In this document: one piece after another, positions 9,432 to 62,714 of the stretch | Layout of the letters: each line of letters opens with the position of its first letter | How positions within the stretch are numbered: position 1 is the stretch's first letter | From: an uncultured bacterium | GTDB taxonomy: Bacteria; Hydrothermota; Tepidihabitantia; Tepidihabitantales; Tepidihabitantaceae | Direction: 5' to 3' | Assembly (NCBI GenBank): GCA_964597845.1 | Contig: CAZQZR010000003.1 | Coordinates: 3,427 to 67,426, forward strand | Length of the DNA: 64,000 nt | The notes under the pieces: generated by a model | The model's database searches: none | What the model was told of the DNA's origin: nothing | Seen by the model: only the letters and a program-made list of their open reading frames with translations | Position numbers and translations under genes: made by a program

Positions 9432-9510
9432 GAGAATAGTGAATAGTAAATAGAGAATTGTGAAACTCGAATCCGCCTTTCACTATTCACCATTCTCAAT
9501 TCACTATTCC
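9432..9510. repeat. long imperfect hairpin built from heptamer words (gaatagt family)
   Basis: gagaatagtgaatagtaaatagagaattgtgaaa / tttcactattcaccattctcaattcactattcc are inverted arms around a 12-nt loop, immediately after the speB stop. The word ttctcaattcactattc recurs at 48251-48275. Confidence 0.6.
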
Positions 9511-9730: not shown

Positions 9731-9808
9731 CCCAACCAGCGAACCAGTTCGCAGTTAGGAGTTAGGAGTCAGGAGACGGTCCGACTGCTACCTGCTACCT
9801 GCTAACTC

Positions 9809-24266: not shown

Positions 24267-25721
24267 CTAGTCCTTTCCAGTCTTGATAATCTTCTGGCTA
24301 CGGCCGCTGGTCGGCCCCGGCATGACGTAATAGACGCCAGGCGCGAGCCGACTCACGTCATTGGCACCGGGCGCGAGGTCCAGCACCTTGCGGCCGGCGA
24401 CGTCCAGCAGGGCGGTTTTGGGGACAGTCCCCGTGCGGGGACAGTCCCCGCCAAGGAACAGCACGCCGCGGACGAGGGTCGGGCCGAGCTTGTGGCCTGA
24501 GGCTTGTGGCTTGAAGCTCTCCCCCACCCCGGCCCCGGCCGGTATCCAGACCGGCATCGCCGCTTCGCCAAGCAGGTTCCATTCAAAGAGACACCAACGG
24601 TACGTGGAACTGGTCTCGGCCAGGGGCACGGCATCGGCCCAGGCGTGGACGATGGCTTCGAGGCTGCCCTGGAGCGGGTCGGCGAACAGGCCGCGGACAA
24701 AGCCCTCGACCATCACGAATGACCCGCCCCGCTGGGGATTCTGTCCTGGACCGCCCAGGCCGTAGCGCGAGTTGCTCGCCACGGCCACGCCGCCGCCGTT
24801 CGGGTTCTGCATGAAATACTCGGAAGCGCAGTCCGCGGTGTCGAACTCTCCGGTTGAGCAGCCGACCGTCGTCATGATCGTGTACTTGCCCTGATTGGTA
24901 AACTGCGCCAGTTCCTCGCGGTACATGACGTAACCGTGGTTCATGTAGCCCATGCCCATGCCGAAGTAGTTGCAGTGGTCGGCATGAATCCAGATGTGCT
25001 GGCCCTGGTTAACGAGGTTCCTGACCGCGGTCTCATGGTTGCCGGTGTAGCTGTCGTAGACTCTGGCGCACGGTTTCATGCCGGAGGAGACATAGGCCGA
25101 GTCGTAGAGCTCCATCGTCGTCTCGCAGTAGACCCCGTCGAAGATGTCGAAACCGGAGAGCAGCACGTTGCGCAGGTACGGAGCGTCGGGGTCGGCGGTG
25201 TAGGCAAGGAACTTGCTGACGAACAGGTCCGCACCGGCGGTCGTGGTCGCGGGCACGCGGCCGACGAAGACGTCCGGGTACATGTCGCAGGAGTCCTCGG
25301 GTTCGCCGAACAGCCCGTTCCCGTTGGCATCCCATGTGCCGTCAAGGTCGGAGTAGTAGAGGTCGGCCGGGATGGAATCGAGCAGTATCGGATTGTAGCC
25401 GGTAGCATCGACCCAGGCGCGACGGCAGGGCACGATTTCCACGTCGCCGCCCAGCAGCACGTGGGTCGTGCCCCAGTTGGAGTATGCATACCTGATGAAG
25501 TTGCGAATCTTCTCCGGGTTGTCCCGACCGGAGTAGGAGGCGTATATCGCTGCGGTCGTCACGACCGTGTCGTTCAACCCCAGGGTGCCCGCAACGTAGC
25601 CGCAGAGCGTCGTGAAGTGCGACACGAAGGAATCGCACGTTATCACGACGTGCGGATACTCCTGGCCCGCGGCCGGCATCGCCGCGAGCATCAGCACGAA
25701 GAGCAGAGTCACTCGCTTCAA
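24267..25721 (-). CDS. gingipain-like cysteine peptidase (C25) lacking a propeptide, with T9SS-type sorting domain
   Basis: 484 aa. The signal peptide leads directly into the catalytic domain (VLLGGDVEIVPCRR, LYYSDLDGTWDANGNG, HADHCNYFGMG, TTVGCSTGEF). The sorting domain contains the 30-nt palindromic element. Confidence 0.8.
   Translation of the reverse strand: MKRVTLLFVLMLAAMPAAGQEYPHVVITCDSFVSHFTTLCGYVAGTLGLNDTVVTTAAIYASYSGRDNPEKIRNFIRYAYSNWGTTHVLLGGDVEIVPCRRAWVDATGYNPILLDSIPADLYYSDLDGTWDANGNGLFGEPEDSCDMYPDVFVGRVPATTTAGADLFVSKFLAYTADPDAPYLRNVLLSGFDIFDGVYCETTMELYDSAYVSSGMKPCARVYDSYTGNHETAVRNLVNQGQHIWIHADHCNYFGMGMGYMNHGYVMYREELAQFTNQGKYTIMTTVGCSTGEFDTADCASEYFMQNPNGGGVAVASNSRYGLGGPGQNPQRGGSFVMVEGFVRGLFADPLQGSLEAIVHAWADAVPLAETSSTYRWCLFEWNLLGEAAMPVWIPAGAGVGESFKPQASGHKLGPTLVRGVLFLGGDCPRTGTVPKTALLDVAGRKVLDLAPGANDVSRLAPGVYYVMPGPTSGRSQKIIKTGKD
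24420..24449 (-). repeat. double-palindrome element, in-frame in a C25 peptidase sorting domain
   Basis: GGGGACAGTCCCC-GTGC-GGGGACAGTCCCC, translated (minus strand) as GDCPRTGTVP(K). Confidence 0.9.
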
Positions 25722-27164: not shown

Positions 27165-28652
27165 CTAGCGGACGACCGCGACGCGAGCAAATGCGCCCGG
27201 TTCGATACCGCGCACGAAGTAGATGCCCGGCGCGAGATGACGCACGTCGTTGGCGCCGGGACGCAGGTCAAGCACCTCTCGCCCGCTGATGTCCAGCAGG
27301 GCGGCTTTGGGGACAGTCCCCGTGCGGGGACTGTCCCCGTTCAGGAACAGCGCACCGCGCACGACGGTGGGCATGCTATACTCCGCTCTCGCCCTGCCGG
27401 CGCCCGCTTCGCTCACCGCCGTGAACGGAAGAAGCAACGTGGCGGAGACGGTGTCGCCGTTGTCCGGAATCGAAAGCGGCATCTCGGTCGAGGAGCCCTG
27501 CGTCTGCCACCCCAGGTGTTTGACCTCGAACAGGTCGACGGAGCCGGTGCGGCCATCGGCCGTGTCGTCCAGGCAGGCGAGGTAGAGCGTGTCCTCTTCG
27601 CCGGTCAGCCACGGCGCGCCGTCGGTCAGGTCGAACGGGATACGCCGGTATGGGAACGGATGGTCGGTGACTGCGGCCCGCCACGACCGGAAGTCCTCGT
27701 GCCACAGGCTGCTCTCCGGCGTGCCGACGCCGAACCGGATTCCGACGCGGTCGCGGGTCGGGTGGCTGAACCGGACCGTGCCGATGAGCACCGGCTGGTA
27801 GTCGATCCGGTCAGTCACGTAGGCGGCGTAGGCGTAGACAATCCGTGTGTCCGCAGTCGCCTGGTAGGACATCCAGAAGTAGCCGCTGTCGCCCCAGGCC
27901 GTGCCCATCGAGTTGACGAGCCGGAACGCACCCGACCCGTCACGCGTGCCCATCGTGTCATCATACCCGACGATGGTCACCGCGTGCCCCGAAATCGGGC
28001 TGCCCTGCATGTCGGCCAGGGTGTAGGTGTTATTATAGTCGCTGATGTGCCAGAAATTGTCGTAGATGACGATGCCGGTGACACAGGTATTGCCGTTGGC
28101 GATGTGCTGGCGGATGAGGTTGACGAAGTTGGGGTCGTTGACGTCGAACCAGAACGCGCTGTCGGTCCGGAACATCATTGCGTTCAGGTACGCCTGCTCG
28201 GTCGGCCAGGTCAGATAGTCAAGGGTATCATATGGACAGTCGGCCATCGTGCCACAGCCCTGCTCGCACATCAGCGCCATCGCTCGGCTGAAAGTGGAAC
28301 TCCCGTTCGTCCCGCGGTTGATCTGGTTGTAGATGAATGCCGGGGCGCCCTGGTGGCTCGGATCGGTGAGGTCCCAGCCCCGTTCGCTGAACTCAAGCTG
28401 GGTCCGGTGGTAATAGCCGAACGCCCATGCGGTGCAGCAGTTCTGCCAGTGCTGGTTGCCGACCGGCGGCATCTCGTGCGACAGGTCGACATAGAGCACC
28501 GTGTCCGCGCACGGCCTCCCCGCCGCGACCGGAACCTCGGTCACCCTGTGAACCCACGGAATGGTATGCATGTCTTCACGGATGACGCCGCCGCAGCCAG
28601 GCGGCGCGACCTGCGCAATAACTACCAGCAGCACGGAGGCAAGAACCGGCAT
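27165..28652 (-). CDS. papain-like cysteine peptidase (C1) with T9SS-type sorting domain
   Basis: 495 aa. GNQHWQNCCTAWAFG (Gln/Cys), SGHAVTIVGYDD (His), NSMGTAWGDSGYFW (Asn/Trp). The sorting domain contains the palindromic element. Confidence 0.85.
   Translation of the reverse strand: MPVLASVLLVVIAQVAPPGCGGVIREDMHTIPWVHRVTEVPVAAGRPCADTVLYVDLSHEMPPVGNQHWQNCCTAWAFGYYHRTQLEFSERGWDLTDPSHQGAPAFIYNQINRGTNGSSTFSRAMALMCEQGCGTMADCPYDTLDYLTWPTEQAYLNAMMFRTDSAFWFDVNDPNFVNLIRQHIANGNTCVTGIVIYDNFWHISDYNNTYTLADMQGSPISGHAVTIVGYDDTMGTRDGSGAFRLVNSMGTAWGDSGYFWMSYQATADTRIVYAYAAYVTDRIDYQPVLIGTVRFSHPTRDRVGIRFGVGTPESSLWHEDFRSWRAAVTDHPFPYRRIPFDLTDGAPWLTGEEDTLYLACLDDTADGRTGSVDLFEVKHLGWQTQGSSTEMPLSIPDNGDTVSATLLLPFTAVSEAGAGRARAEYSMPTVVRGALFLNGDSPRTGTVPKAALLDISGREVLDLRPGANDVRHLAPGIYFVRGIEPGAFARVAVVR
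27309..27338 (-). repeat. double-palindrome element, in-frame in the C1 peptidase sorting domain
   Basis: GGGGACAGTCCCC-GTGC-GGGGACTGTCCCC, translated as GDSPRTGTVP(K). Confidence 0.9.
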
Positions 28653-28655
28653 GCG

Positions 28656-30533
28656 CTACTTCGTAATCACGATGCGGCTGGCCCCGGACCACGCATCTGT
28701 CTGCGTGCGCACGAAGTACACGCCGGGTGCGAGGCGACGCACGTCGTTCGGACCGGGATGCAGGTCGAGCACCTCTCGCCCGCTGATGTCGAGGAGCACG
28801 GTTTTGGGGACAGTCCCCGTGCGGGGACAGTCCCCGTTCAGGAACAGCACACGGCCAATGACCGTGGCGCGCGGCCCGGCCGGTCCGAGCGGGCCAGCGC
28901 TTTCCTCAGCGAGGCCGACCACGTCGTCGCCGAGCACGACGGTGAATGCAACCGGCATCATGATGGTGTTGCCAGCATCGGTGAAGGTCACCTCAAGCCG
29001 GAGCGGAATGGTATCTCCCGGCTGCCCCAGGTCGGACGCCCGAACCAGGAACTGGTCGGCCCGGTTGTCGACGTCGCTCAGGCGACCGACGCCCGGGAAC
29101 GACTTGACCGAGTCCAACACCGTGACGAGCGTATCGAGCGACACCAGCCTTGCGCTGATGCTGTATGCCGAGTCGAGCGGGTGTATGGCCCGGTTCCGAA
29201 TGGTGAACCAGACACGCGCGGTCTCGCCGGGGTCGAGCCGGCCCGACGAGTTGCCCGACCCCGTATCGTTGACCGTGCTCGCCACTGGGTCGAAGTACAC
29301 GCCGGCGATGCGGGCCAGGTAGTAGAGGGTCGGGACGTCTCCGTCAACTTCCTTGCGCATGAGCGCGGAGTCGTTCCAGCAGGCGTAGAACCACGTGTCT
29401 GCTTCGATCGTGAACGCGTAGGTGACGAACTTGCCCCCGGAATCGGATAGCCCCCAGTCAATCTGGATGCCGTTACAGAGGTAGAGGACGTTCGAGGCCT
29501 GGCCGGTCCTCGCGTAGTCGTAGTCGTTGTACATCTGGAACGTGTCAACCACCTCCTGGAGCAGGGCCTGTTCCGGGGGCGAGGAGTAGGTATACCCCCA
29601 CGGGTAGCAGTTGTACCCGCCGAAGCAGTGGAAGTCCTGCTCGGTGCGGAACCGGTGTGCGGCCTCCAGGTCGCGGGCCGCAGTGGCTTCCGCGTCGCTC
29701 CAGGCATAGGGACCACGGTAGGCGTGCGACGAGGGGTTGGGGGATGAACCAACGTTGTCGTAGCCCCACTTGTAGCCGTGGTTGCGGGACGGGTCCACGC
29801 CGATGTTCGGGGGCACGACGACGCGGCGGTTCTTGCGCCAGTAGACGCCCGCGCCGCCCGAGTCCGAGCAGAAAACAGAACAGTCCGGGTTGAGTATCGG
29901 TACCGTATAGATTTCGCGGTTGTTAACCAGCCAGGTGGACAACGGGTCGGTTCCGTAGCCGGACAGAATCTGTTGCAGGAAAGCCATGACAATGGACGTA
30001 CCCATCGGCTCGTCGCCGTGAGTCGAGCCGGAGAAGTAACAGGCCGGCTCGTCCTCCTCCACCGATGCGTTGTCCGATATCTTGAGGCACAGAATGTCGC
30101 GGTTCTGGCTGGTAGTCCCGATGACGAAAAGGCTGCAGATTTCCGGGTACCTGGCCGCGAAGGCGATGACCGAATCCGTCATCTCCCAGTAGGTGTAGTA
30201 GTAGCCGAAGTCCTGGAGGGTCGGCGGCTGGTCCGGGTCTACGCCGGTGAACAGCTGGAACTTCTCGTCGAGGTTGGCCCATGTAACTGCGGTCTCGAGC
30301 CCGCAGTCCCGGATGCGGGCAAGCTGCTCCGCGTCGGTGACAAGGACCAGGTACGTGCCGTTCTCGTCCGTGCCATGAGAACAGATGTAGAGGTCCCCGG
30401 CAAGGTCACCGAGCCGGTCGAGGTCACGGGCGTCGTTGACGTACAGCCTTGCCTCAATGAGCGTCACGGACCGGTCTTGGGCAAACCCGGCTGTCACCAG
30501 GCACACGAGGGCAAGTAGCATCATCCGGTACAT
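28656..30533 (-). CDS. M14 zinc carboxypeptidase with T9SS-type sorting domain
   Basis: 625 aa. AAGGAG RBS and signal peptide. Zn-binding region FSGSTHGDEPMG. The sorting domain contains the palindromic element. Confidence 0.85.
   Translation of the reverse strand: MYRMMLLALVCLVTAGFAQDRSVTLIEARLYVNDARDLDRLGDLAGDLYICSHGTDENGTYLVLVTDAEQLARIRDCGLETAVTWANLDEKFQLFTGVDPDQPPTLQDFGYYYTYWEMTDSVIAFAARYPEICSLFVIGTTSQNRDILCLKISDNASVEEDEPACYFSGSTHGDEPMGTSIVMAFLQQILSGYGTDPLSTWLVNNREIYTVPILNPDCSVFCSDSGGAGVYWRKNRRVVVPPNIGVDPSRNHGYKWGYDNVGSSPNPSSHAYRGPYAWSDAEATAARDLEAAHRFRTEQDFHCFGGYNCYPWGYTYSSPPEQALLQEVVDTFQMYNDYDYARTGQASNVLYLCNGIQIDWGLSDSGGKFVTYAFTIEADTWFYACWNDSALMRKEVDGDVPTLYYLARIAGVYFDPVASTVNDTGSGNSSGRLDPGETARVWFTIRNRAIHPLDSAYSISARLVSLDTLVTVLDSVKSFPGVGRLSDVDNRADQFLVRASDLGQPGDTIPLRLEVTFTDAGNTIMMPVAFTVVLGDDVVGLAEESAGPLGPAGPRATVIGRVLFLNGDCPRTGTVPKTVLLDISGREVLDLHPGPNDVRRLAPGVYFVRTQTDAWSGASRIVITK
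28806..28835 (-). repeat. double-palindrome element, in-frame in the M14 peptidase sorting domain
   Basis: GGGGACAGTCCCC-GTGC-GGGGACAGTCCCC, translated as GDCPRTGTVP(K). Confidence 0.9.
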
Positions 30534-37579: not shown

Positions 37580-38842
37580 ATGCCAATGACGTTTGCCGAA
37601 AGAGTGCTCAGCCGCAAGGCAGGCAAGAAGGCTGTCCGGGCGGGTGAACTCGTCACCTGCAAGCCCGACCGGCTCCTGATGCACGACAATGCCGCGGCCA
37701 TCACCGACAAGGTGGCAAAGGACCTGGCCGAGTTCGGGATCGCGGACCCGGAACAGCCGGTCATCGTCCTCGACCACGTGATTCCGGCCTCAGACGAAAA
37801 GACCGCTACAAGCCACAAGAAGATCCGCGAGTTCGTCCAGAGATACGGCATCAAGCACTTCTTCGACATCGGCACCGGCATCTGCCACCAGGTGATGGTC
37901 GAAAAGGGACTGGTCCTGCCCGGCACGCTCGCAGTCGGTTCGGACTCGCACACCTGCTCCTACGGCGCGGTGAACACGTTTGCCACCGGCGTCGACCGGA
38001 CCGAGGCGGCGTCCCTGCTCCTCACCGGCGAGACATGGTTCAAGGTCCCCGAGACAATCCGCATTACCCTCAAGGGCCGGCTGCCGGAGATGGTGGCGGC
38101 CAAGGACCTCATCCTGACCATCATCGGCAAGATCGGCGCCGACGGCGCGGACTACTGCTCAGTCGAGTTCTGGGGTGACATCGGCAGCCTGACGATTGAC
38201 GACCGGTTCACCATCGCGAACATGGGCGTCGAGATGGGTGCGAAGAACGCTGTCTTCCCGGTGGACGAAATCACGAAGGGCTATCTGCAGGAAGTCGGCG
38301 TGAAGCGCATATCGTGGAACCCCGAGTGGGCGGATGATGGCGCGACCTATCGGCAGGAGCTGACGTGGAACATGGCCGAGGTCGTGCCGGCGATTGCCGT
38401 CCCGCACAAGGTTGACAAGTACAAGCCCGTCACCGAGATGGCCGGCCTGGAGATTCAGCAGTGCCTGATTGGCACGTGCACGAACGGACGGGCGAGCGAC
38501 CTCGCGGTCGCGGCGAGAATACTCTGCGGCAAGAAGGTCTCTCAGAATACGCGGCTGCTGATACTCCCCGCCTCCCGGGCTGAACTCGAGAAGGCACTCG
38601 ACGCCGAGGACATCCAGACCCTTGTTTCTGCCGGCGCGGTCCTGCTGCCCCCAGGCTGCGGGCCGTGCCTCGGCGCGCACCAGGGCTGCCTTGCGCCCGG
38701 CGAGAAGTGCCTTTCGACTGCAAACCGCAACTTCAAAGGCCGGATGGGCTGCAAGGACGCCGAAATCTACCTTGCCTCGCCCGCAACCGTGGCCGCGACC
38801 GCACTCACCGGCAAGATTACTGACCCGCGTGAATTCGCATGA
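37580..38842 (+). CDS. leuC: 3-isopropylmalate dehydratase / homoaconitase large subunit family
   Basis: MTFAERVLSRKAG...ELVTCKPDRLLMHDN, GSDSHTC, CGPCLG, ANRNFKGR (aconitase-family Fe-S ligand region). Substrate assignment is uncertain. Confidence 0.8.
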   Translation: MPMTFAERVLSRKAGKKAVRAGELVTCKPDRLLMHDNAAAITDKVAKDLAEFGIADPEQPVIVLDHVIPASDEKTATSHKKIREFVQRYGIKHFFDIGTGICHQVMVEKGLVLPGTLAVGSDSHTCSYGAVNTFATGVDRTEAASLLLTGETWFKVPETIRITLKGRLPEMVAAKDLILTIIGKIGADGADYCSVEFWGDIGSLTIDDRFTIANMGVEMGAKNAVFPVDEITKGYLQEVGVKRISWNPEWADDGATYRQELTWNMAEVVPAIAVPHKVDKYKPVTEMAGLEIQQCLIGTCTNGRASDLAVAARILCGKKVSQNTRLLILPASRAELEKALDAEDIQTLVSAGAVLLPPGCGPCLGAHQGCLAPGEKCLSTANRNFKGRMGCKDAEIYLASPATVAATALTGKITDPREFA

Positions 38843-38876
38843 CTTTGGACTTGAGACTTTGGACTTAGGACTTAAC

Positions 38877-39404
38877 ATGAAGATATGGGCCTACGGCGAT
38901 GACATCAACACCGACATGCTGTTCCCGGGCAAGTACACTTACACGTGTGCCAAACCGGACGAGATCAAACCGCATCTGCTCGAAGACCTTGACCCTGAGT
39001 TCGCCAAAGCAGTCCAGCCCGGCGACATCATCATCGCGGGCAAGAACTTCGGGTGTGGCTCTTCGCGGGAACAGCCGGTCGTGGGACTCAAAGCGGTCGG
39101 CATCGAAGCGATTGTGGCCAGGAGCTACGCCCGCATCTTCTATCGCGCGGCCATCAACCAGGGCCTGCTGCTGATTGAGTGCCCGGACGCGGTCGCCGCG
39201 TACGCACGGGACATGACTGGAACCGCCGAGGTTCCGGACCGTGTCCCAAGAGTCCAGCTTGACCTGAAACAGAGCACCATCAAGGTCGGTGACCAGACGT
39301 TCAAGTTCCCGACACTGCCCCCGGAAATCCTGGCGATACGTGACGCCGGGGGCCTGCTTGAATACACTCGTGCCCGGCTCCGGGCAAAGAAGGAGGCCAG
39401 ATGA
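38877..39404 (+). CDS. leuD: 3-isopropylmalate dehydratase / homoaconitase small subunit family
   Basis: 175 aa. MKIWAYGDDINTDMLFPGKY...GKNFGCGSSREQP. Start trimmed from the ORF-track 38622. Confidence 0.8.
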   Translation: MKIWAYGDDINTDMLFPGKYTYTCAKPDEIKPHLLEDLDPEFAKAVQPGDIIIAGKNFGCGSSREQPVVGLKAVGIEAIVARSYARIFYRAAINQGLLLIECPDAVAAYARDMTGTAEVPDRVPRVQLDLKQSTIKVGDQTFKFPTLPPEILAIRDAGGLLEYTRARLRAKKEAR

Positions 39405-40792
39405 GCGCACAGTCGAAAGGACGCAAAGCCACGAAAGCACGAAAGCACGAAGAGGAATCCGTTTCTTCTGTTTCGTGTCTTCGTGGCTCAACTCCGGTCG
39501 GTGTTCGTGCATCCCAGGCCGGTCGCCGCGGTCCGGACGTCCGTTCCGACCTTTGGGTCGAACTCGAACTGCGCAAGTCCGGCGGCATCGAACTGAACCT
39601 TAAGAGCAAGGTTGACTTCATGTACGGCGAGGCCAACCGCAAGCTCGTACTCGATACGCTCAAGACCCTCGGAGTCGAGCACGCCCGTGTGGACATCGAA
39701 GACACCGGCGCTCTCCCTTTCGTCATCATGGCCCGACTGGAGACCGCTGTCAGGCGAGCTGCGCTCGCCAAGTCCGAAGTCCAAAGTCAGAAGGCCAAAG
39801 TAGCGGAGGTTCTGCCTGAACCAGGGCCGTCCTTCACGAGGCCTTCGGCGCGCGACCGTTGGCGCCGGTCCCGACTCTACCTGCCCGGCAACGAGCCCAG
39901 GTTCATGATCAATGCCAGAATCCACAAGCCGGACGCGGTCATCCTCGACCTCGAGGATTCGGTTCCGGCTCCGGACAAAGATGCGGCCCTGCTCGTCGTC
40001 CGCAATGCACTCTATGCGCTCGACTTCGGCGACTGCGAGCGTATGGTACGCATCAACCCGCTTCCGGCCGGGCTCGAGGAAGTAGAGCCGCTGGTCCACG
40101 CCGGAGTCAACGTCATTCTCATTCCCAAGTGCGAGTCCGCAGAACAGGTCAAAGCAGTCGACGCCCGCATCTCCTCCGCCCTTTCCTCACTCGCAACCCG
40201 CAACTCGCAACTCGTAACCTACCTGATGCCTATTGTCGAAACCTGCGAAGGCATGTTCAAGGCGCGAGAGATTGCCGGCGCATCGCCGCGCGTCGTCGCG
40301 CTGACCTACGGGCTCGAAGACTACCTGCTCGACCTCGGCGGCATCAAAACAACGGCGGGGCTTGAGAGCCTGTGGGCGCGGTCCCAGGTCGCAAACGCGG
40401 CCAAGGCCGCCGGCATCCAGGCCATCGACACGGTCTTCGCCGACATCGATGACACGGCCGCGCTGCAGGCCAGTTGCCAGGCCGCAAAGGAACTCGGGTT
40501 CGAAGGCAAGGGCTGCATCCACCCGCGCCAGGTCCCGGTCGTAAACGAGGCGTTCTCCCCATCACCCGCGGAAATCGAGAAAGCTCAGCAGATAGTGGTG
40601 GCATTCAAGGAAGCGCAGGCCCGGGGCCGCAACGTCGTCAGCGTTGGTTCGAAGATGATAGACCCGCCGGTCGTGGAACGCGCCCTGCGCACGATCGCAA
40701 TGGCAACGGCAATGGGTTCAGGGGGTCAAGGGTCCTCGGGTTCAGCCCAGACCCCCCGGACCCCGGAACCCCAGAACCCCTCGGAGTCCTAG
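39401..40792 (+). CDS. citE: citrate lyase acyl-carrier (CitD-like) fused to citrate lyase beta / citryl-CoA lyase (CitE-like)
   Basis: ATGA overlap with the leuD-like stop. Residues about 50-120 (DLWVELELRKSGGIELNLKSKVDFMYG...VDIEDTGALPFVIMARLE) are CitD-like. The rest (RSRLYLPGNEPRFM...DAVILDLEDSV) is HpcH/CitE-like. Both termini are encoded by repeat words. Confidence 0.75.
   Translation: MSAQSKGRKATKARKHEEESVSSVSCLRGSTPVGVRASQAGRRGPDVRSDLWVELELRKSGGIELNLKSKVDFMYGEANRKLVLDTLKTLGVEHARVDIEDTGALPFVIMARLETAVRRAALAKSEVQSQKAKVAEVLPEPGPSFTRPSARDRWRRSRLYLPGNEPRFMINARIHKPDAVILDLEDSVPAPDKDAALLVVRNALYALDFGDCERMVRINPLPAGLEEVEPLVHAGVNVILIPKCESAEQVKAVDARISSALSSLATRNSQLVTYLMPIVETCEGMFKAREIAGASPRVVALTYGLEDYLLDLGGIKTTAGLESLWARSQVANAAKAAGIQAIDTVFADIDDTAALQASCQAAKELGFEGKGCIHPRQVPVVNEAFSPSPAEIEKAQQIVVAFKEAQARGRNVVSVGSKMIDPPVVERALRTIAMATAMGSGGQGSSGSAQTPRTPEPQNPSES
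39428..39487. repeat. word-repeat hairpin translated as the N-terminus of the CitD-E fusion
   Basis: GCCACGAAAGCACGAAAGCACGAAGAGGAA-tccg-TTTCTTCTGTTTCGTGTCTTCGTGGC. There is no alternative in-frame start downstream. Confidence 0.7.
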
Positions 40793-42400
40793 ATGCAACT
40801 CGTCAAGAACGCGCTCGGCCGCATGGTCCCGACCGAGGTCAACGGCAAGCCGGCAATCCCATTCCCCGGAGTAGGTAAGCACCGGCCCACCGGCCGCAAG
40901 GCCTGCCCGCAAATCCCGACCTGCCTTGATTACCCGGAAGACGGCAACAAAGTCGTGGCCGACTTGAGGACCGCGATCGAGAAGGCCGGTATCCGCAACG
41001 GCACGACTCTCTCGACCCACCACCACTTCCGCGACGGCGATACACTCCCACTCCAACTCTTCGACCTCTGCGCCGAAATGGGTCTTAAGGACTTGGTCTG
41101 GTATCCTTCGGCCGCCTTCCCGTGCCACGCGCCGATAACCAAACATCTCGACTCCGGCGTCATCCACCACATCGAAGGCAGCTTAAACGGCCCCTTGGGA
41201 GACTACTGCACCCAGGGCAAGATGCGCGGGCTGGGCGTGCTCCGCTCGCACGGCGGCCGTGCCCAGGCGATTCAGGATGGTGAAATCCACATCGACATCG
41301 CGGTTGTCGCCGCGCCGACTGCCGACCAGTTCGGCAACGCCAACGGGGTCCACGGCGACACGGCCTGCGGCGTGCTCGGCTACGCCCCCGCCGACGTAAC
41401 CTATGCCGACCGGACTATCGTAGTCACCGACAACCTGGTCCCCTTCCCGGCAATCCCCATCCAGCTCTCGGGCACGTACGTCGACATGGTCGTACAGCAG
41501 GACCATATCGGCGACCCAAAGAAAATCGTCTCGGGCACGACCCAGATTACGCGCAGCCCGGACCGGCTCTACATCGCCGAACTGACCGCGAAGTTCATCC
41601 GTGACGCCGGCATCATGCGCGACGGGTTCAGCTTCCAGGCGGGCGCCGGCGGCGTCTCGCTCGCCTTCGCCATCTACCTTGCCGACATGATGAAGCAGAA
41701 CGGGGTCAAAGCAGGCTGGCTCCACGGCGGCTCGACCCGGTACCTCGTGAAGATGCTCGAGGACGGCCTTGCGCCCGCGCTGGTTGACGGGCAGGCATTC
41801 GACGAGGACGCAATCCGCTCCATCGCGGTCAACCGCGGCCACATCTCCACCAGCCCCCTGGTCAGCTACAACTTCCACGCCAAAGGCAACTACATCAACC
41901 TGCTCGACGTGGCCGTGCTCGGCGCGACCGAAGTGGACACGAACTTCAACGCCAACGTCGTCACCCATTCGGACGGCCGCCTGCGCCACGGCATCGGCGG
42001 CTGGCAGAACTGCATGTACGCCCGCTGCACGATACTCTCGGTACCCGCCATGCGCGACCGGATGCCGGTCATCGTTGACGAAGTAACCACGCTCTGCGCC
42101 CCGGGCGAACTTGTAGACGTCATCGTCACCGAGCTCGGAATCGCCATCAACCCCAGACGACAGGACCTGCTCGATGCGGTCAAAGGCAAGGGCCTCCCGG
42201 TCCGGCCCATCGAAGACATCAAGGCCGAGGTCGAGCGCATCTGCGGCAAACCGGCCCGTCAGGCGCGCGAAAACGGGGACTGTCCCGCGCCGAGTTCGAC
42301 GCAGGCGCTCCGGGGGACTGTCCCCAGTTTTCGCCGAGTCGTAGCCGTCGTCAAATGGGTTGACGGCACGGTACTCGACTCGGTGTACCAAGTCAGTTAG
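40793..42400 (+). CDS. citF: citrate lyase alpha subunit (citrate CoA-transferase)
   Basis: 535 aa with the ATG directly after the CitE stop. CitF-like length and N-terminus (NALGRMVPTEVNGK...PF.G). C-terminal region interrupted by a palindromic-element variant. Confidence 0.8.
   Translation: MQLVKNALGRMVPTEVNGKPAIPFPGVGKHRPTGRKACPQIPTCLDYPEDGNKVVADLRTAIEKAGIRNGTTLSTHHHFRDGDTLPLQLFDLCAEMGLKDLVWYPSAAFPCHAPITKHLDSGVIHHIEGSLNGPLGDYCTQGKMRGLGVLRSHGGRAQAIQDGEIHIDIAVVAAPTADQFGNANGVHGDTACGVLGYAPADVTYADRTIVVTDNLVPFPAIPIQLSGTYVDMVVQQDHIGDPKKIVSGTTQITRSPDRLYIAELTAKFIRDAGIMRDGFSFQAGAGGVSLAFAIYLADMMKQNGVKAGWLHGGSTRYLVKMLEDGLAPALVDGQAFDEDAIRSIAVNRGHISTSPLVSYNFHAKGNYINLLDVAVLGATEVDTNFNANVVTHSDGRLRHGIGGWQNCMYARCTILSVPAMRDRMPVIVDEVTTLCAPGELVDVIVTELGIAINPRRQDLLDAVKGKGLPVRPIEDIKAEVERICGKPARQARENGDCPAPSSTQALRGTVPSFRRVVAVVKWVDGTVLDSVYQVS
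42275..42325 (+). repeat. palindromic element variant with expanded spacer, in-frame in citF
   Basis: GGGGACTGTCCC-N26-GGGGACTGTCCCC, flanked by the inverted GCGAAAAC / GTTTTCGC. Translated as GDCPAPSSTQALRGTVP. Confidence 0.8.
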
Positions 42401-48311: not shown

Positions 48312-48647
48312 TAGACTGTTTGGTGAATTGTCCGGAGAATCATCTAGAGAGCAATCCGGCAGACTATCCTCCAGACTATCCGCCAGACAATCTGGAGAAT
48401 CATCTAGACGACTATCCAGCAGACTATCTGGAAGACAATCTCCCGGAGAATGTGGAGGACAATCTGGACCGCAGTCTGGAGAACCATTCAGCCGACTATT
48501 CCGCAGATTGCCCGGAGAATCATCTGGAGAGCAATCTGGAGGATTATCCGGAGAGCAATCGGGCAGACAATCTACCCGATTATTCGGTAGATTGTCTGGT
48601 GAATTGCCTGGCGGATTATCTGGAGAACTATCCGGGGAATTCTCGTC
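48312..48647. repeat. 12-nt degenerate tandem array C (28 units, consensus NRGAYWATCYGG)
   Basis: 28 consecutive 12-mers in perfect phase with no indel (agaatcatctag agagcaatccgg cagactatcctc ...). Positions 3-4 GA, 7-8 AT and 11-12 GG are conserved. Open in three reading frames. Begins about 20 nt after the HerA terminator. Confidence 0.85.
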
Positions 48648-53615: not shown

Positions 53616-53624
53616 CGGGAATGA

Positions 53625-53740
53625 CCAATTGCCAATTGCCAATTCCCAACGAATCCCCCAAGACCGAATGACTCGGCCGTTCGTGCTCCATCATTTCCTG
53701 ATTCGTTGGTCATTAGGAATTGGGGCTTGGGAATTGCCGG
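53625..53740. repeat. long imperfect hairpin of heptamer words (ccaattg family) between lpd and the acyl-CoA dehydrogenase gene
   Basis: ccaattgccaattgccaattcccaacgaatc ... gattcgttggtcattaggaattggggcttgggaattgccgg. Confidence 0.65.
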
Positions 53741-54899: not shown

Positions 54900-54916
54900 A
54901 CTCTGCTCCTTTGCGA

Positions 54917-55012
54917 ACTAGTTAGCAGTTAGCAGTGAAGAGTTAGTGAGGAAACCAACTCCTGACTCCTAACCCTTGACTCTTAACTCCTAACTCACTG
55001 TCCTACTGCTGC
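54917..55012. repeat. word-repeat inverted pair (tagcagt / taggagt family)
   Basis: ctagttagcagttagcagtgaagagttagtgagg ... ctcctgactcctaacccttgactcttaactcctaactcactgtcctactgctg. The same word family occurs at 9745-9815 and 42395-42430. Confidence 0.6.
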
Positions 55013-57862: not shown

Positions 57863-57933
57863 AGTATCCTCCCGTTAGAATCTATCCTAACCTTCTGAAA
57901 TTGTCAAGGGGTTTCGGCACATGCCTCGCCGGC

Positions 57934-57961
57934 TTGACAACGCAATCTGGCGCTCTAATAT
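57934..57961 (+). promoter_or_regulatory. sigma70-like promoter giving a leaderless glyS mRNA
   Basis: TTGACA-N16-TAATAT, with 7 nt between the -10 hexamer and the ATG at 57969. No Shine-Dalgarno sequence. Confidence 0.5.
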
Positions 57962-57968
57962 CCTCGCG

Positions 57969-60122
57969 ATGAAGCAACTGCTCCTTGAAATCGGTACTGA
58001 AGAAATCCCGGCCTCGTTCCTTAAGCCGGCGGCGCTCGACCTTGAGCGCCGGGTTCGGGCCGCGATTTCGGAAAATGACATACCGGCTGGCGTGTCCGAG
58101 CTCTTCTCGACCCCGCGCCGGCTCGCGCTCCGCCTAAGCGACGTCGCCGACGGCAGGCCTGCCCAGGTCATTGAACTCCAGGGCCCGCCCCGCAAGGCCG
58201 CGTTCGACGCCCAGGACAACCCCACCAGGACCGCGGTCGGATTCAGCGCGGCCCACGGCAAGACCCCGGCGGACCTGTACTTCAAACAGACTCCGCGCGG
58301 CGAATACGTCTTCCTGAAGAAACAGACCGACCCGTTGCCGACCACCAAAGTGCTGCAGGAAAGGCTGCCCGGAATCATCCCCACCCTGCCATTCCCCAAG
58401 AACATGCGCTGGGACGCAAGCGGCCTCAGGTTCGCCCGACCTATCCGCTGGCTCGTCTGCCTGTTTGGCCCGGATGCGGTCGAGTTCACACTCGGCGAAC
58501 TCAAGTCCGGCGCCGACTCCCGCGGGCTCCGCAACTCGAAGCCTTCTCAGTTTCGCGTCCCGAGCCCGGCCGAGTACGAAACCGCGCTAAAGGCGCACGG
58601 CGTCATCGCGTCGCACGACGCCCGGCGCAAGACCATCGCGGCGGACTTGCTTCGCCTGGCCGGCACGGTCAGCGGCCAGCCGGTCGAGGACGACGAACTA
58701 TTGGACGAGACCACGGACATCACCGAATCCCCGGAACTGCTCCTCTGCTCATTCAACCCGGACTACCTCTCCCTGCCCGGCGAAGTACTGGTAACCGCGC
58801 TCAAGAAGCACCAGCGCTGCTTCTCCGTTCAGGGGGACTGTCCCCGCACGGGGACTGTCCCCAAAGCCGCGCCTGCCCTCCTCCCCCGTTTTGTCGCCGT
58901 CACCAATACGCCCGGCTGCGACCACGCAGTGGTGACCGGCTGGTACGAGAGAGCCGCCGAGTCGCGACTGCGCGACGCCCGTTTCTTCGTCGAGTCCGAC
59001 CTGAAACGCGGCCTCGAAGCGCTGGTCGATGAGGAAAAGCAAGTCACGTGGATCGAAGGCATGGGCACCTACTTCGACAAAACCCAGCGCCTGCGCGAAC
59101 TCTGCCGCCACCTGACAGCGCAGACCCCGAACACCGACGCGATCGCGCTGGACCGGGCCGCCCTGCTCTGCAAGGCCGACCTGCTCACAGAGATGGTACG
59201 CGAGAAGGAGTTTACCTCGCTGCAGGGCCGCATCGGTGGCATCTACGCGCGTACCATGGGTGAACCGCCGTCCGTTGCCGACGCGATTGCCGAGCACTAC
59301 CTGCCCCGTTTCACCGGCGACAAGCTGCCGGCGACCCGTGACGGCGCGCTGCTCAGCATTGCCGACAAGCTCGACAACATCGTCGCCACCTTCCTGAGTG
59401 GCGAAATTCCCACCGGCTCCGAAGACCCGTTCGCCCTGCGCCGCCAGGCAACCGGGCTCCTCACCATCGTGCTCAAACAGAACCTGCCGATTGATATCGG
59501 TGAACTGGTCGCGGCCGCGCTCCGGCTCCTCCCCGCAGCGAAGAACGAATACGCGTCCCAGATTCCCGGCCTGTTCCGCGAACGGCTCAATGCCCTTCTC
59601 GCCGAACAGGGAATCCGGTACGACATCGCGGCCGCGGTCATGGAGACCAGTTGGCAGCAGCCGGCCCAGGCTCTGGTCCGGGCCAATGCGCTGGCCGCGT
59701 TCCGCGACGACCCCGAGTTCCTAAGGCTCGTAGTCGGTCAGAAGCGCGTGGCCAACATCCTGAAGGGACAAACCGCCTGGGGACTGTCCCCGCATGGGGA
59801 CTGTCAGGGGACTGTCCCCGAACGGGGACTGTCCCCAAAACTCAAAGAGCGACTTCTCACCGAACCCACCGAGCAGCAACTCTGGACCGAAGCGCAGAAG
59901 GTCGAGCCCGACCTTAACCAAAGCCTTGCCGCGCACGACTACCGGCGCGCCTTCAAGTTACTTCTCGGCCTCCGTCCGACGATAGACAAGTTCTTTGAGG
60001 ACATACTGGTGATGGCCAAGGATGAGAAGGTGCGAGAGAACCGCCTTAGCCTGCTCGGGTACGTCCGCTCCCTATTCGGCAGAGTCGCGGACCTGTCGAA
60101 GATAGTCATTGAAGGAGAATAG
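57969..60122 (+). CDS. glyS: glycine-tRNA ligase beta subunit
   Basis: MKQLLLEIGTEEIPASF..., FSTPRRLA, typical GlyS N-terminus and length apart from two palindromic-element inserts. No glyQ is adjacent. Confidence 0.9.
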   Translation: MKQLLLEIGTEEIPASFLKPAALDLERRVRAAISENDIPAGVSELFSTPRRLALRLSDVADGRPAQVIELQGPPRKAAFDAQDNPTRTAVGFSAAHGKTPADLYFKQTPRGEYVFLKKQTDPLPTTKVLQERLPGIIPTLPFPKNMRWDASGLRFARPIRWLVCLFGPDAVEFTLGELKSGADSRGLRNSKPSQFRVPSPAEYETALKAHGVIASHDARRKTIAADLLRLAGTVSGQPVEDDELLDETTDITESPELLLCSFNPDYLSLPGEVLVTALKKHQRCFSVQGDCPRTGTVPKAAPALLPRFVAVTNTPGCDHAVVTGWYERAAESRLRDARFFVESDLKRGLEALVDEEKQVTWIEGMGTYFDKTQRLRELCRHLTAQTPNTDAIALDRAALLCKADLLTEMVREKEFTSLQGRIGGIYARTMGEPPSVADAIAEHYLPRFTGDKLPATRDGALLSIADKLDNIVATFLSGEIPTGSEDPFALRRQATGLLTIVLKQNLPIDIGELVAAALRLLPAAKNEYASQIPGLFRERLNALLAEQGIRYDIAAAVMETSWQQPAQALVRANALAAFRDDPEFLRLVVGQKRVANILKGQTAWGLSPHGDCQGTVPERGLSPKLKERLLTEPTEQQLWTEAQKVEPDLNQSLAAHDYRRAFKLLLGLRPTIDKFFEDILVMAKDEKVRENRLSLLGYVRSLFGRVADLSKIVIEGE
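58833..58862 (+). repeat. double-palindrome element, in-frame in glyS
   Basis: GGGGACTGTCCCC-GCAC-GGGGACTGTCCCC, translated as GDCPRTGTVP(K). Same orientation and frame relative to the host gene as the three sorting-domain copies. Confidence 0.9.
59779..59836 (+). repeat. tandem/partial copies of the palindromic element, in-frame in glyS
   Basis: GGGGACTGTCCCC-gcat-GGGGACTGTC-a-GGGGACTGTCCCC-gaac-GGGGACTGTCCCC, translated as GLSPHGDCQGTVPERGLSP. Confidence 0.9.
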
Positions 60123-61268: not shown

Positions 61269-62714
61269 CTACTTCTTCACTCCCGCTGCCTCCTGCCGTA
61301 CCGTGTTCATCATCGAGAGCACGCAGGCGATACCCTCCTCATTCAGCCCGACTTCAACGAACAGCTCTTCCATCCGCTTCCGTCCCAGCTTGCCCTCACA
61401 CTTGGTCAGCTCGTTCAGCATCGACCTGGGTCCGTCGGCCGCCCCGATCTTCAGGGACAAACACAGCGCCGCGGCCAACTCCGGCACGGCCTGATCATGC
61501 TTCCCCATGTCCATCAAAATTGTCCCAACGCTGGCAAGGCTGCACGCCACGCCCTGCTGATACCCGATCTCACGGTGAATCGCCAGCGCCTCCTGCAGGT
61601 ACTTCAGAGCCCTGTCGGGCTCGGCTTTGTCGCGGTAGACAAGCCCGATGTTGCCGAGGTCGCTCGCGACGACCCGCTGATACCCGATTTCACGGTCGAT
61701 CGCCAGTCCTTCCTCGAAGCACTCCAGCGCCTTGTCGAGTTCGCCCTTGACGCGGAAGATACTCCCGATGTTGCCGAGCCGGTCCGCCGCGCCCTGCTTG
61801 TGACCGACTTCGCGGTCTATGGCCAGCGCCTCTTTGTAGTACTTGAGCGCCTTGTCGAGTTCGCCCTTGTCGCGGTAGATAAGCCCGATGTTGCCGAGGT
61901 CGCTCGCCACGCCCTGCTGATAATCAATTTCGCGGTCTATCGTGAGCGCTTCCTCATAGCACTTCAGCGCCTTGTCGGATTCACTTTTGTTGCGGTAGAT
62001 AGTCCCGATGTCGCCGAGGTCGCTCGCCACGGCTCGCCGATATCCGATCTTGCGGTGAATCGCCAGCGCTTCCTCGTAGCACTTCAGCGCCTTGTCGGGC
62101 TCGCCCATGTCGTGGTAGATGAGCGCGATTTCGCCGATGTCTGATGCCTCGCCCCGATGATGCCCGATTTCACGGTGAATCGCCAGCGCCGCCTCCATGT
62201 ACTTCAGCGCCTGCTTGGGTCCGCCCTTGTCCCGATGGATGTTCGCCATGTTGACGAGGTTTGTCGCCGCCTCCTCCCGAGACGCGACTTCACGGTCTAT
62301 CGCCAGCGCTTCCTCGTAGCATTTCAGCGCCCTGTCAGGTTCGCCCTTCGTGCCGCAGATGAACCCGATGTCACCGAGGGCCGCGGCCTTCCCCAGCTTG
62401 TCCCCGAACTGCTCTGCCAGCCGGACCGATTCCTCGTAGTTCCTGAGCGCGTCGTCCAGGCGGCCCGGGCGGTAGCAGCACAACCCGATCAGGTTAAACA
62501 GCGCGACGAGCTGCTTCCCCTCGGCCAGCTTTGTCGCTTCCCGGAAGTGGCCAATTGCTTTGTCCCACTTGTTCGCACGCATGGCGGCATGACCAAGGTC
62601 GTACAGTTTTCTGATCGCGGGCTCAGACTCCGGCAGGCCGCCGAGGTATCCCATCAAGCCTCCATCTGGGAGCGCAGACTTGCGGCCCCATTCCACAGAA
62701 CGCCGGAACCGCAA
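61269..62714 (-). CDS. tetratricopeptide-repeat protein
   Basis: 481 aa. About nine 40-aa units of ALK.YEEALAI.REIG...G.A..LGNIG.IYRDKGE.DK. Confidence 0.8.
   Translation of the reverse strand: MRFRRSVEWGRKSALPDGGLMGYLGGLPESEPAIRKLYDLGHAAMRANKWDKAIGHFREATKLAEGKQLVALFNLIGLCCYRPGRLDDALRNYEESVRLAEQFGDKLGKAAALGDIGFICGTKGEPDRALKCYEEALAIDREVASREEAATNLVNMANIHRDKGGPKQALKYMEAALAIHREIGHHRGEASDIGEIALIYHDMGEPDKALKCYEEALAIHRKIGYRRAVASDLGDIGTIYRNKSESDKALKCYEEALTIDREIDYQQGVASDLGNIGLIYRDKGELDKALKYYKEALAIDREVGHKQGAADRLGNIGSIFRVKGELDKALECFEEGLAIDREIGYQRVVASDLGNIGLVYRDKAEPDRALKYLQEALAIHREIGYQQGVACSLASVGTILMDMGKHDQAVPELAAALCLSLKIGAADGPRSMLNELTKCEGKLGRKRMEELFVEVGLNEEGIACVLSMMNTVRQEAAGVKK

Follow-up and report, generated by a model that had tools for sequence, protein, structure and literature searches.

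Palindromic repeats that invade housekeeping genes in frame are known mainly from Rickettsia. The RPE family described there (Ogata et al. 2000) consists, as far as later summaries tell (PMC3733652, PMC1779305), of palindromic inserts that preserve the reading frame of the host gene; RPEs are about 100-150 nt long, AT-rich, carry a CGTC end and occur only in Rickettsia (PMC3733652). Here we describe a smaller element from free-living, uncultured lineages. In a 64-kb stretch of DNA from a WOR-3 bacterium, the whole of which is called the window below, a palindromic element assembled from 13-nt units interrupts glyS twice, the gene encoding the beta subunit of the heterotetrameric glycine--tRNA ligase (GlyRS). 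Like the RPEs, it lies in frame at tolerant positions of proteins that remain functional, housekeeping proteins among them; its presence varies among close relatives and it encodes no transposase. Unlike the RPEs, it has a unit of only 30 nt with 73% GC, contains a self-complementary 13-mer, forms tandem and mosaic arrays and is found in many phyla. With regard to homology to the RPE family, no CGTC end, no Rfam match over glyS and no match in the literature were found.

The second group of comparable repeats comprises REP, BIME and REPIN-RAYT, with which the element shares short GC-rich hairpins in high copy number, arranged as singlets, doublets, inverted doublets and mosaics. Its 30-nt doublet falls within the 20-40 nt of the REP palindromes and likewise occurs in many copies, and in Proteobacteria and Actinomycetes it is extragenic and terminator-like, as REPs are. 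A single-copy, syntenic Y1 gene flanked by related sequence, found on several contigs discussed below, recalls the RAYT genes. Unlike REPs, the element lacks a GTAG or CGTC tag and lies predominantly inside genes in WOR-3, Omnitrophota and the candidate phyla radiation (CPR); the mainly extragenic position of REPs was seen only in Oxalobacteraceae and at many Actinomycetes loci, not in the window or in low-GC genomes. Intragenic REPs have also been reported (PMC3733652). REP sequences are normally species-specific, whereas the 30-mer is identical across phyla.

Similar in sequence are the repeats associated with the RAYT-like Y1 transposases named TIRYT: according to Di Nocera et al. 2013 (PMC3733652), inverted repeats with a common GGGGWSAS flank the TIRYT genes and are found as dimers and clusters too. 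The published TIRtron families are moderately abundant, extragenic inverted repeats of 20-30 nt from cultured Proteobacteria, Acidobacteria and Planctomycetes (PMC3733652). The element has GGGGWSAS in common with them, as well as the dimers, the clusters and, in some of them, self-complementarity, and the motif was reproduced in 54 metagenomic loci; it differs in that its exact 13-mer was not found to flank the TIRYT genes examined, the best case being GGGGACAGTCACCC. Tiny mobile palindromes are also known as GC clusters, double-hairpin elements and 'byp' elements of fungal mitochondria (PMC4478555) and as RHEs of sponges (PMC2800124). The mitochondrial GC clusters resemble the element in being GC-rich, double-hairpin units that can lie within coding genes and bring no enzyme; they are organellar and reside in AT-rich genomes, and some 'byps' are skipped by the ribosome, so that the frame need not hold. 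In the present element the frame is always kept, which makes translation the simplest reading. The phenomenon is REP/RPE-like and therefore not categorically new, but we are not aware of an earlier description of the element itself, its minimal double-palindrome form, its identity across phyla, its preference for coding loops in compact genomes or its link to the Y1 transposases that have GGGGWSAS ends. We assign a probability of roughly 0.6 to the reading that the glyS inserts are copies of a small, non-autonomous REP/RPE-like hairpin element, filtered by selection into tolerant loops and presumably mobilised by a Y1 transposase.

Insertion sites in glyS and its orthologues

Despite the inserts, glyS remains an intact open reading frame (ORF) of 733 codons that matches the full TIGR00211 profile with 688.7 bits, besides PF02092 and DALR_1 (PF05746); tolerated in-frame insertion, as in RPE-bearing genes, is therefore found here as well. 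Most orthologues start with MKQLLLEIG, equivalent to window position 57969, and the longest ORF begins 16 codons upstream (57921-57968). Since confidence in an AlphaFold2 model is low for the upstream codons (residues 1-12 have a predicted local distance difference test score, pLDDT, below 50), the true start is probably 57969 and the first 16 codons may be untranslated.

The original prediction that one palindromic element interrupts glyS at two sites, the second composed of four 13-mer arms with one truncated, agrees with the sequence (Table 1). A protein search with the window GlyS (P0001) revealed a dense series of WOR-3 relatives of 685 to 742 residues whose length differences cluster at a few alignment positions. 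Eight syntenic orthologues (L111-L118) from independent assemblies (ENA, JGI, NCBI), 75-93% identical, were compared at the DNA level and differ in the presence or absence of the inserts. Site 1 is empty in L112, L113 and L114, which have the loop RKA[G/D]SDE; it holds a perfect, identical copy in the window, L116, L117 and L118 and a decayed one in L111 and L115. As the RKA[G/D]SDE loop is also found in more distant relatives, the empty site represents the ancestral state. Site 2 is unoccupied in L111, L112, L115, L116 and L117; L113 has one simple doublet with a GCAT spacer there, and L114 several units in a state of decay. Among the syntenic relatives that lack the site 2 insert, L111 is the closest (about 92.7% DNA identity over 16 kb), and compared with it the window has a clean insertion of 54 nt (18 codons). 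Homologous palindrome-free sequence at both sites in close relatives would have spoken against the original prediction; the comparison turned out in its favour, as the relatives have shorter ancestral loops at the two sites (RKA[G/D]SDE, TAGLPAES). These short, non-palindromic loops identify sites 1 and 2 as insertions and not as products of assembly.

A third site, between LRELCRHL and LDRAAL (window about 59120-59160), is empty in the window and occupied in relatives by a frame-1 GCAT doublet (L116, L114), a frame-2 GCAC doublet (L111), an opposite-orientation long form (L118) or a different palindrome, GGGACATGAC...GTGTCCC (L113). The differing frames, spacers, orientations and element families make a single origin impossible, and the comparison indicates that site 3 was independently invaded at least three or four times in the relatives. 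Among 104 GlyS relatives, peptides derived from the 13-mer occur ten times at site 1, nine times at site 3 and five times at site 2, and a second element type is present five times each at sites 1 and 3. The carriers belong nearly all to a close clade (at least 74% identity), the exception being P0079 at site 3. A fourth variable site of glyS, at window position ~59548, has 27 extra nt in L111 (CACTGTCCGACAGGGGCCGCCGAGGCC).

The perfect copies at site 1 are unusually uniform. In an alignment of glyS from the window, L116, L117 and L118 (77-86% identity), no invariant stretch exceeds 33 nt; this longest one consists of the element plus AAA and sits within an otherwise hypervariable loop. L111, the sister of the window, has about six substitutions across the same 37 nt, and gene trees place the empty alleles L113 and L114 among occupied ones. 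Renewal of perfect copies, through re-insertion or through conversion from other copies, would explain this pattern, and so would a transfer of alleles by recombination. Mobility or repeated gene conversion had been proposed for the element: the glyS inserts are genuine insertions of a repeat found in unrelated genes as well, the same loops were hit by independent events, and homogenisation, or maintenance of perfect copies at the DNA level, is suggested by the sequence comparison.

The positions of the inserts in the protein were derived from the AlphaFold2 model, which was built on an alignment of 104 GlyS sequences, has an overall pLDDT of 92.6 and a predicted TM score of 0.84, and resembles the GlyRS beta structures 7lu4, 7yse and 8ie2 in Foldseek (TM 0.76-0.84). 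Site 1 forms the loop of a beta-hairpin with strands 301-305 and 320-328 (block mean pLDDT 80 and 68). Site 2 (residues ~619-640) forms an extended coil that joins helices 599-614 and 649-670 and in which the pLDDT falls below 50 only at 624-633, and site 3 is a loop between helices 384-401 and 407-422. The inserts thus lie in loops, and all the glyS insertion sites are predicted to be coils or loops of reduced confidence in an otherwise confident model. In the domain map of E. coli GlyRS beta (B3 216-340, HD 341-540, ABD 541 to the end; PMC8464048), site 1 would fall approximately in B3, site 3 in HD and site 2 near the start of the anticodon-binding region, as judged by sequence position alone with an N-terminal offset of ~16 residues allowed for. 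The inserts provide a natural map of loops in GlyRS beta and other core enzymes that tolerate insertions of 10-20 residues.

The element in the window and in other genomes

The module of the element is the 13-nt palindrome GGGGAC[T/A]GTCCCC. Usually two modules form a 30-nt doublet around a directional 4-nt spacer, G-A/C-A-C/T; as the module is itself palindromic, the doublet is a direct and an inverted repeat at once. None of the six frames of the 30-mer contains a stop codon, and the encoded residues are rich in Gly, Pro, Ser and Thr. Because of this and its length, a genic copy adds ten residues and leaves the frame unshifted. With up to one mismatch allowed, the 13-mer has 25 strand matches in the window, where 0.24 would be expected and 100 shuffles gave no more than 3. 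The window has six element sites, five of them inside ORFs (Table 1).

Table 1. Positions of glyS and of the copies of the palindromic element in the window
Feature	Position	Strand	Remarks
glyS, glycine--tRNA ligase beta subunit, 733-aa ORF	57921..60122	+	TIGR00211, PF02092, PF05746
glyS site 1, perfect doublet GGGGACTGTCCCC-GCAC-GGGGACTGTCCCC	58833..58862	+	peptide GDCPRTGTVP then K; residues 305-314
Site 1, 3' tail AAAGCCG	58863..58869	+	moves with the doublet; recurs after perfect copies
glyS site 2, composite of four units, one truncated	59779..59836	+	peptide GLSPHGDCQGTVPERGLSP
Site 2, first 13-mer, followed by GCAT	59779..59791	+	
Site 2, truncated 9-mer, followed by CA	59796..59804	+	
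Site 2, second 13-mer, followed by GAAC	59807..59819	+	
Site 2, third 13-mer	59824..59836	+	
Site 2, 3' tail AAAAC	59837..59841	+	matches the tail in L113 (CCCCAAAACC) and in the peptidase copies
Doublet, GCAC in gene sense	24420..24449	-	in frame (GDCPRTGTVP), C-terminal sorting domain of C25 peptidase, 24267-25721 (-)
Doublet, mixed A/T form, a perfect 13-bp inverted repeat	27309..27338	-	in frame, C-terminal domain of C1 peptidase, 27165-28652 (-)
Doublet	28806..28835	-	in frame, C-terminal domain of M14 carboxypeptidase, 28656-30533 (-)
Long form, GCGAAAAC-13-mer (1 mismatch)-25 nt-13-mer-A-GTTTTCGC	42262..42338	+	3' end of citF ORF, 40793-42400

The long form comprises about 77 nt with the outer ends GAAAAC and GTTTTC; its architecture, with a similar inner spacer, is also found at glyS site 3 of L118, in L158 and in L204. 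In the window lineage a short 3' tail, AAA(A/G)CC, is added to the doublet. In glyS it stands behind the perfect copies of four orthologues at site 1 and of L116 and L114 at site 3, in part extended by G; the sorting domains of the peptidases and the WOR-3 loci L093, L096, L080 and L104 have it after perfect copies as well, a recurrence that makes it part of the element in this lineage. Of the flanks that the glyS and peptidase copies had been predicted to share, only this 3' side (AAAGCCGC; AAA[A/G]CC in all perfect copies) is common to them. The presumed 5' flank TTCAGG reads CTGAAC in gene sense in the peptidases and GTTCAG in glyS, a reverse-complement coincidence, and at glyS site 1 the 5' flank is not conserved, the orthologues having ATACAA, ATTCAC and GTCCAA.

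Site 1 has the same orientation and frame as the peptidase copies, as had been noticed, but the further conclusion that a constant frame reflects one tolerated translation is not supported. Site 2 uses the GLSP..GDCP frame, site 3 of L111 the GTVP..GLSP frame, and genes of other WOR-3 bacteria and of other phyla contain the element in the opposite orientation (GDSP..GTVP, GTVP..GQSP), so that all frames are used. The reading frame itself is intact at every copy, even where decay has gone so far that the copy no longer folds and its peptide has changed (L111, peptide GDCPQTGTAPEAE). Annotations and alignments of candidate phyla will hold recurrent GDCP, GTVP and GLSP peptides that are repeat-derived and not functional motifs.

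A scan of one genome per species for two 13-mers separated by four nucleotides yielded at least 110 stretches from more than 40 genomes of at least 12 phyla, with a locus GC content of 38 to 74%. Among the matches listed, the carriers were WOR-3, Omnitrophota, Planctomycetia, Patescibacteria, Aminicenantes, Armatimonadota, Binatia, Actinomycetes, Thermoleophilia, Geobacteraceae, Myxococcaceae, sphingomonads and Oxalobacteraceae, the last including an isolate, Pseudoduganella flava CGMCC 1.10685. When these listed copies were oriented by the central base, 93 of 130 were TT/AA forms, in which the spacer G-(A/C)-A-(C/T) has G at the first position in 82 of 91 and A at the third in 73 of 91; the oriented consensus is GGGGACTGTCCCC-GMAY-GGGGACTGTCCCC.

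Most copies in low-GC genomes are genic. In genomes of 38-51% GC the doublet lies in frame in genes of the CobQ type (L003, L036), in MiaB-like genes (L055, L091), a Mur-ligase gene (L088) and a GatA-like amidase gene (L101). A low-GC Gottesmanbacterium has it twice, in frame, in an HExxH membrane protein (L076), and a Ser/Thr kinase (L033) is a further host. This in-frame set, with genomes of 38-57% GC, bears the labels Omnitrophota, Planctomycetia, Gottesmanbacteria and Aminicenantes, and its copies, those in CobQ and MiaB included, are often located between Pfam domains. In a low-GC genome, chance does not explain an open frame across the doublet. In Proteobacteria and Actinomycetes the copies are mostly between genes, and in Oxalobacteraceae and many Actinomycetes they often form inverted doublet pairs ~45 nt apart; some intergenic copies are flanked by A/T runs, like terminators.

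In Oxalobacteraceae (L048, L078, L090, L107, L061) a REPIN-like composite of ~110 nt stands in intergenic positions next to ordinary genes and consists of a T-form doublet, GGGGTTGCTTTTC...~45 nt...AACCCC and an A-form doublet with a 3-nt spacer. A transposase between element pairs 1.5 kb apart in this family was considered and dismissed, as the genes there look ordinary in translation (DctA-like, DegP-like). Tandem arrays of the 13-mer occur in a Pirellulales genome (L064, 2627-2850, period 17 nt, at least 7 units with an assembly gap inside) and in Allosphingosinicella (L022, 1529-1684, period 18 nt, 9 units) and demonstrate that the repeat expands by slippage. A metagenome-assembled genome labelled Bifidobacterium breve (CAMAVU01; L024, L038, L044, L047, L082), full of the element and of GGTTGGGG-type repeats, was set aside: its contigs have ~70% GC, so that the label looks wrong or the bin contaminated.

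Proposed mobilisation of the element and alternative origins

In the proposed mechanism, the arms of the element would serve as the recognition motif of a TIRYT, a RAYT-like Y1 (HUH) tyrosine transposase of the IS200/IS605 superfamily, which would mobilise the hairpins in trans as single-stranded DNA. Selection would then remove copies that damage proteins, and the survivors would build up in a few permissive surface loops, which would account for three glyS loops being hit again and again, independently, within this WOR-3 clade. The mRNA would retain the insert, folded into a very stable hairpin, and ribosomes would translate it. Perfect copies would be kept uniform by re-insertion or short-tract gene conversion, and the others would decay by point mutation. 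If the motif recognised is a conserved one of a widespread enzyme family, its identity in many phyla would be explained.

The A-form arm GGGGACAG fits GGGGWSAS (W=A, S=C, A, S=G) and thus has the core with which TIRtron repeats start; the T-form strand GGGGACTG is off at one position. TIRYT proteins were rebuilt from Additional file 5 of PMC3733652, and 80 metagenomic loci were obtained, 54 of them with both flanks. A flanking inverted repeat was found in 43 of these 54, and ~34 of the 43 repeats contain the core GGG(G)[A/T]C[A/G], in most cases 50-60 nt before the start codon. Several loci have a complete hairpin, GGGGACAG...CTGTCCCC, at each end. The closest flanking repeats agree with the element at 13 of 14 positions (L158, L203, L204) or 12 of 13 (L149, GGGGACAGACCCC). 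On the contigs L158, L203 and L204, with 61-63% GC, a Y1_Tnp gene stands between (G/A)GGGACAGTCACCCTATTTC and its complement, that is, the 13-mer plus one base. The flanks are AGGGACAGTCACCCTATTTC and its complement in L158 (61% GC), and GGGGACAGTCACCC..., the 13-mer plus one base, in L203, whose transposase is 86% identical to that of L158; the contigs with the GGGGACAGTCACCC-flanked gene are WOR-3-like. Besides the Y1_Tnp gene, L158 and L204 contain the 13-mer element in its long form, and the CN-hydrolase (Lnt-like) gene of L158 holds both a long form and a GGGACATGAC-type element in frame. In 18 contigs from many samples, members of the same 90% cluster of this IS200-like gene occupy a single syntenic place on the chromosome, and one of these loci again has a long form. 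A gene present once, at a syntenic position and with related hairpins on its flanks, behaves like a RAYT gene, as far as the sequence analysis goes. In L204-L209 the gene is at 10001-10684, and many of the 18 contigs stop ~300 nt past it, as if the assembly broke on a repeat; repeats of the element do break metagenome assemblies. On these grounds we infer that trans-mobilisation by a TIRYT-like enzyme would be the best available mechanism, which offers a concrete link between REP-like repeats and Y1 transposases with GGGGWSAS ends.

Several observations count against this interpretation. The exact 13-mer was the flanking repeat of none of ~60 TIRYT loci, and phmmer searches with E. coli RayT and ten TIRYT proteins revealed no Y1 transposase gene in the window or in 118 element-bearing loci (E. 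coli RayT itself has no Pfam match at an E-value of 0.01 or better). The 30-mer lacks the tags GTAG and CGTC by which classical REP superfamilies are defined, and base counts of the adjoining flanks are motif-free. Comparison with empty alleles disclosed no target-site duplication at any junction, where exact junctions and duplications are not definable because the loops carry other indels. The window copies on both strands are oriented with transcription, which a model of lagging-strand transposition of single-stranded DNA does not predict, in a sample of about four independent events; GC skew gave no sign of a change in replication direction across the window. The occurrence in many phyla is a raw count of matches to this one palindrome. 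Translation and retention of the inserts in mRNA and protein are most likely, as the frame is kept even in decayed copies, a conclusion drawn from frame conservation. A kept frame is expected if ribosomes read the insert and is not required under splicing or bypass; a permissive Rfam scan over glyS gave no intron match and nothing else of relevance, and we know of no ribozyme or intein small enough for a 30-nt insert. Finally, the empty site 2 already reads GGxCTGCC, so that microhomology-guided copying without a dedicated enzyme could explain the event at this site. The element does not match the MITEs either (70-300 bp, terminal inverted repeats of 15-30 bp, target-site duplications), given the unit of 30 nt and the ~77-nt long form.

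Microhomology-guided copying at site 2 belongs to an alternative in which no dedicated enzyme takes part and ectopic short-tract gene conversion, template switching or slippage is seeded at partial matches to the palindrome. The empty site 2 alleles, GCGGGACTGCC or GGTCTGCCC, have a 7-9-nt partial match to GGGGACTGTCCCC, and empty site 1 has AAGGCAGGC where the tail of the element reads AAAGCCG. Slippage is displayed by the four-unit site 2 and by the arrays with periods of 17-18 nt in L064 and L022, and the perfect 33-nt identity among diverged orthologues would fit concerted evolution. RecA-dependent exchange, however, usually needs a length at or above that of these 13-30-nt repeats; site 3 was entered in different frames and with different junctions that offer no obvious microhomology. 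Enzyme-free spread also leaves unexplained why the same oriented 30-mer with its constrained GMAY spacer recurs in at least 12 phyla and why its arm matches a conserved transposase end motif. We regard this alternative as unlikely, although it has to be taken seriously for site 2.

Much less probable is a selected role, in which the hairpins delay ribosomes where two domains meet or act on transcript stability or termination, or the Cys/Pro-rich loop serves the protein. The predicted RNA hairpins are indeed very stable, from -26 to -47 kcal/mol with z-scores of -3.3 to -6.2 (site 1 -25.9 kcal/mol; site 2 -47 kcal/mol, z = -6.2; the 27309-27338 copy -30.6 kcal/mol; the citF long form -44.6 kcal/mol). 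Site 2 connects two helices close to the beginning of the anticodon-binding region, and the copies in CobQ and MiaB lie between Pfam domains; low-GC intergenic copies flanked by A/T runs resemble bidirectional terminators, and in some lineages the DNA is perfectly conserved. Yet close relatives retain an intact essential gene with the inserts missing or decayed, which makes a selected role in glyS unlikely. Different frames and orientations yield different peptides, unrelated element families occupy the same loops, and, with the exception of P0079 at site 3, distant GlyS proteins (below ~70% identity) are devoid of the elements. Repeats may be collapsed or wrongly joined in metagenome assemblies, and many contigs with the related transposase end near repeats, but an origin of the inserts in chimeric joins or sequencing errors is practically excluded, since the same inserts recur at the same codons, with lineage-specific substitutions, across samples and pipelines (ENA ERZ27297441; JGI 3300044799, 3300022553, 3300035099, 3300035660, 3300037137), the frame is always intact and the element is also present in the P. 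flava isolate.

The preferred reading, a hairpin element mobilised in trans and filtered by selection, can be extended. Tentatively, and with more doubt than conviction, we suggest that a single 30-nt 'coding-proof' selfish hairpin has spread over at least a dozen phyla by mimicking the conserved end motif of a domesticated Y1 transposase family, residing mainly in essential genes of compact genomes (WOR-3, Omnitrophota, CPR), where it repeatedly re-invades the same permissive loops, and being kept perfect by active re-homing or conversion. If this is true, core proteins would continually receive loop insertions from such an element in nature. With respect to vehicles of spread, the IMG/VR viral contigs contained no doublet and 72,556 plasmids only partial chance matches, so that no phage or plasmid vector was found. 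An all-against-all BLAST of 3,390 ORFs from 110 element-bearing loci detected no protein family that recurs beside the element, and a literature search for the 13-mer and 11-mer strings retrieved eukaryotic primers and oligonucleotides only, none in a bacterial context.

Other repeats of the window

A second palindromic family, GGGACATGACTGGAACCGCCGAGGTTCCGGACCGTGTCCC, is present at 39207-39247, in frame (peptide RDMTGTAEVPDRVP) in a LeuD-like gene (Aconitase_C, ORF 38622-39404). It also occurs at glyS sites 1 and 3 of relatives and in the CN-hydrolase (Lnt-like) gene of L158, and its ends resemble GGGGACAC-type repeats around some Y1 transposase genes (L151). AT-richer inverted repeats of low complexity (TTAGCAGTTAGCAG..., GAGAATAGTGAATAG...) are located at 54911-54973, 53616-53739, 9432-9497, 9755-9812, 48542-48620 and 39427-39488. 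The first of them, 63 nt long, is missing from the 92.7%-identical L111, an indication that the genome of the window holds more families of small insertional repeats. In the region 61500-62400, BLAST of L111 against the window produces a ladder of offset matches with ~73% identity, mostly ~120 nt apart, within the ORF 61269-62714 (-), which looks like a gene for a protein with internal tandem repeats.

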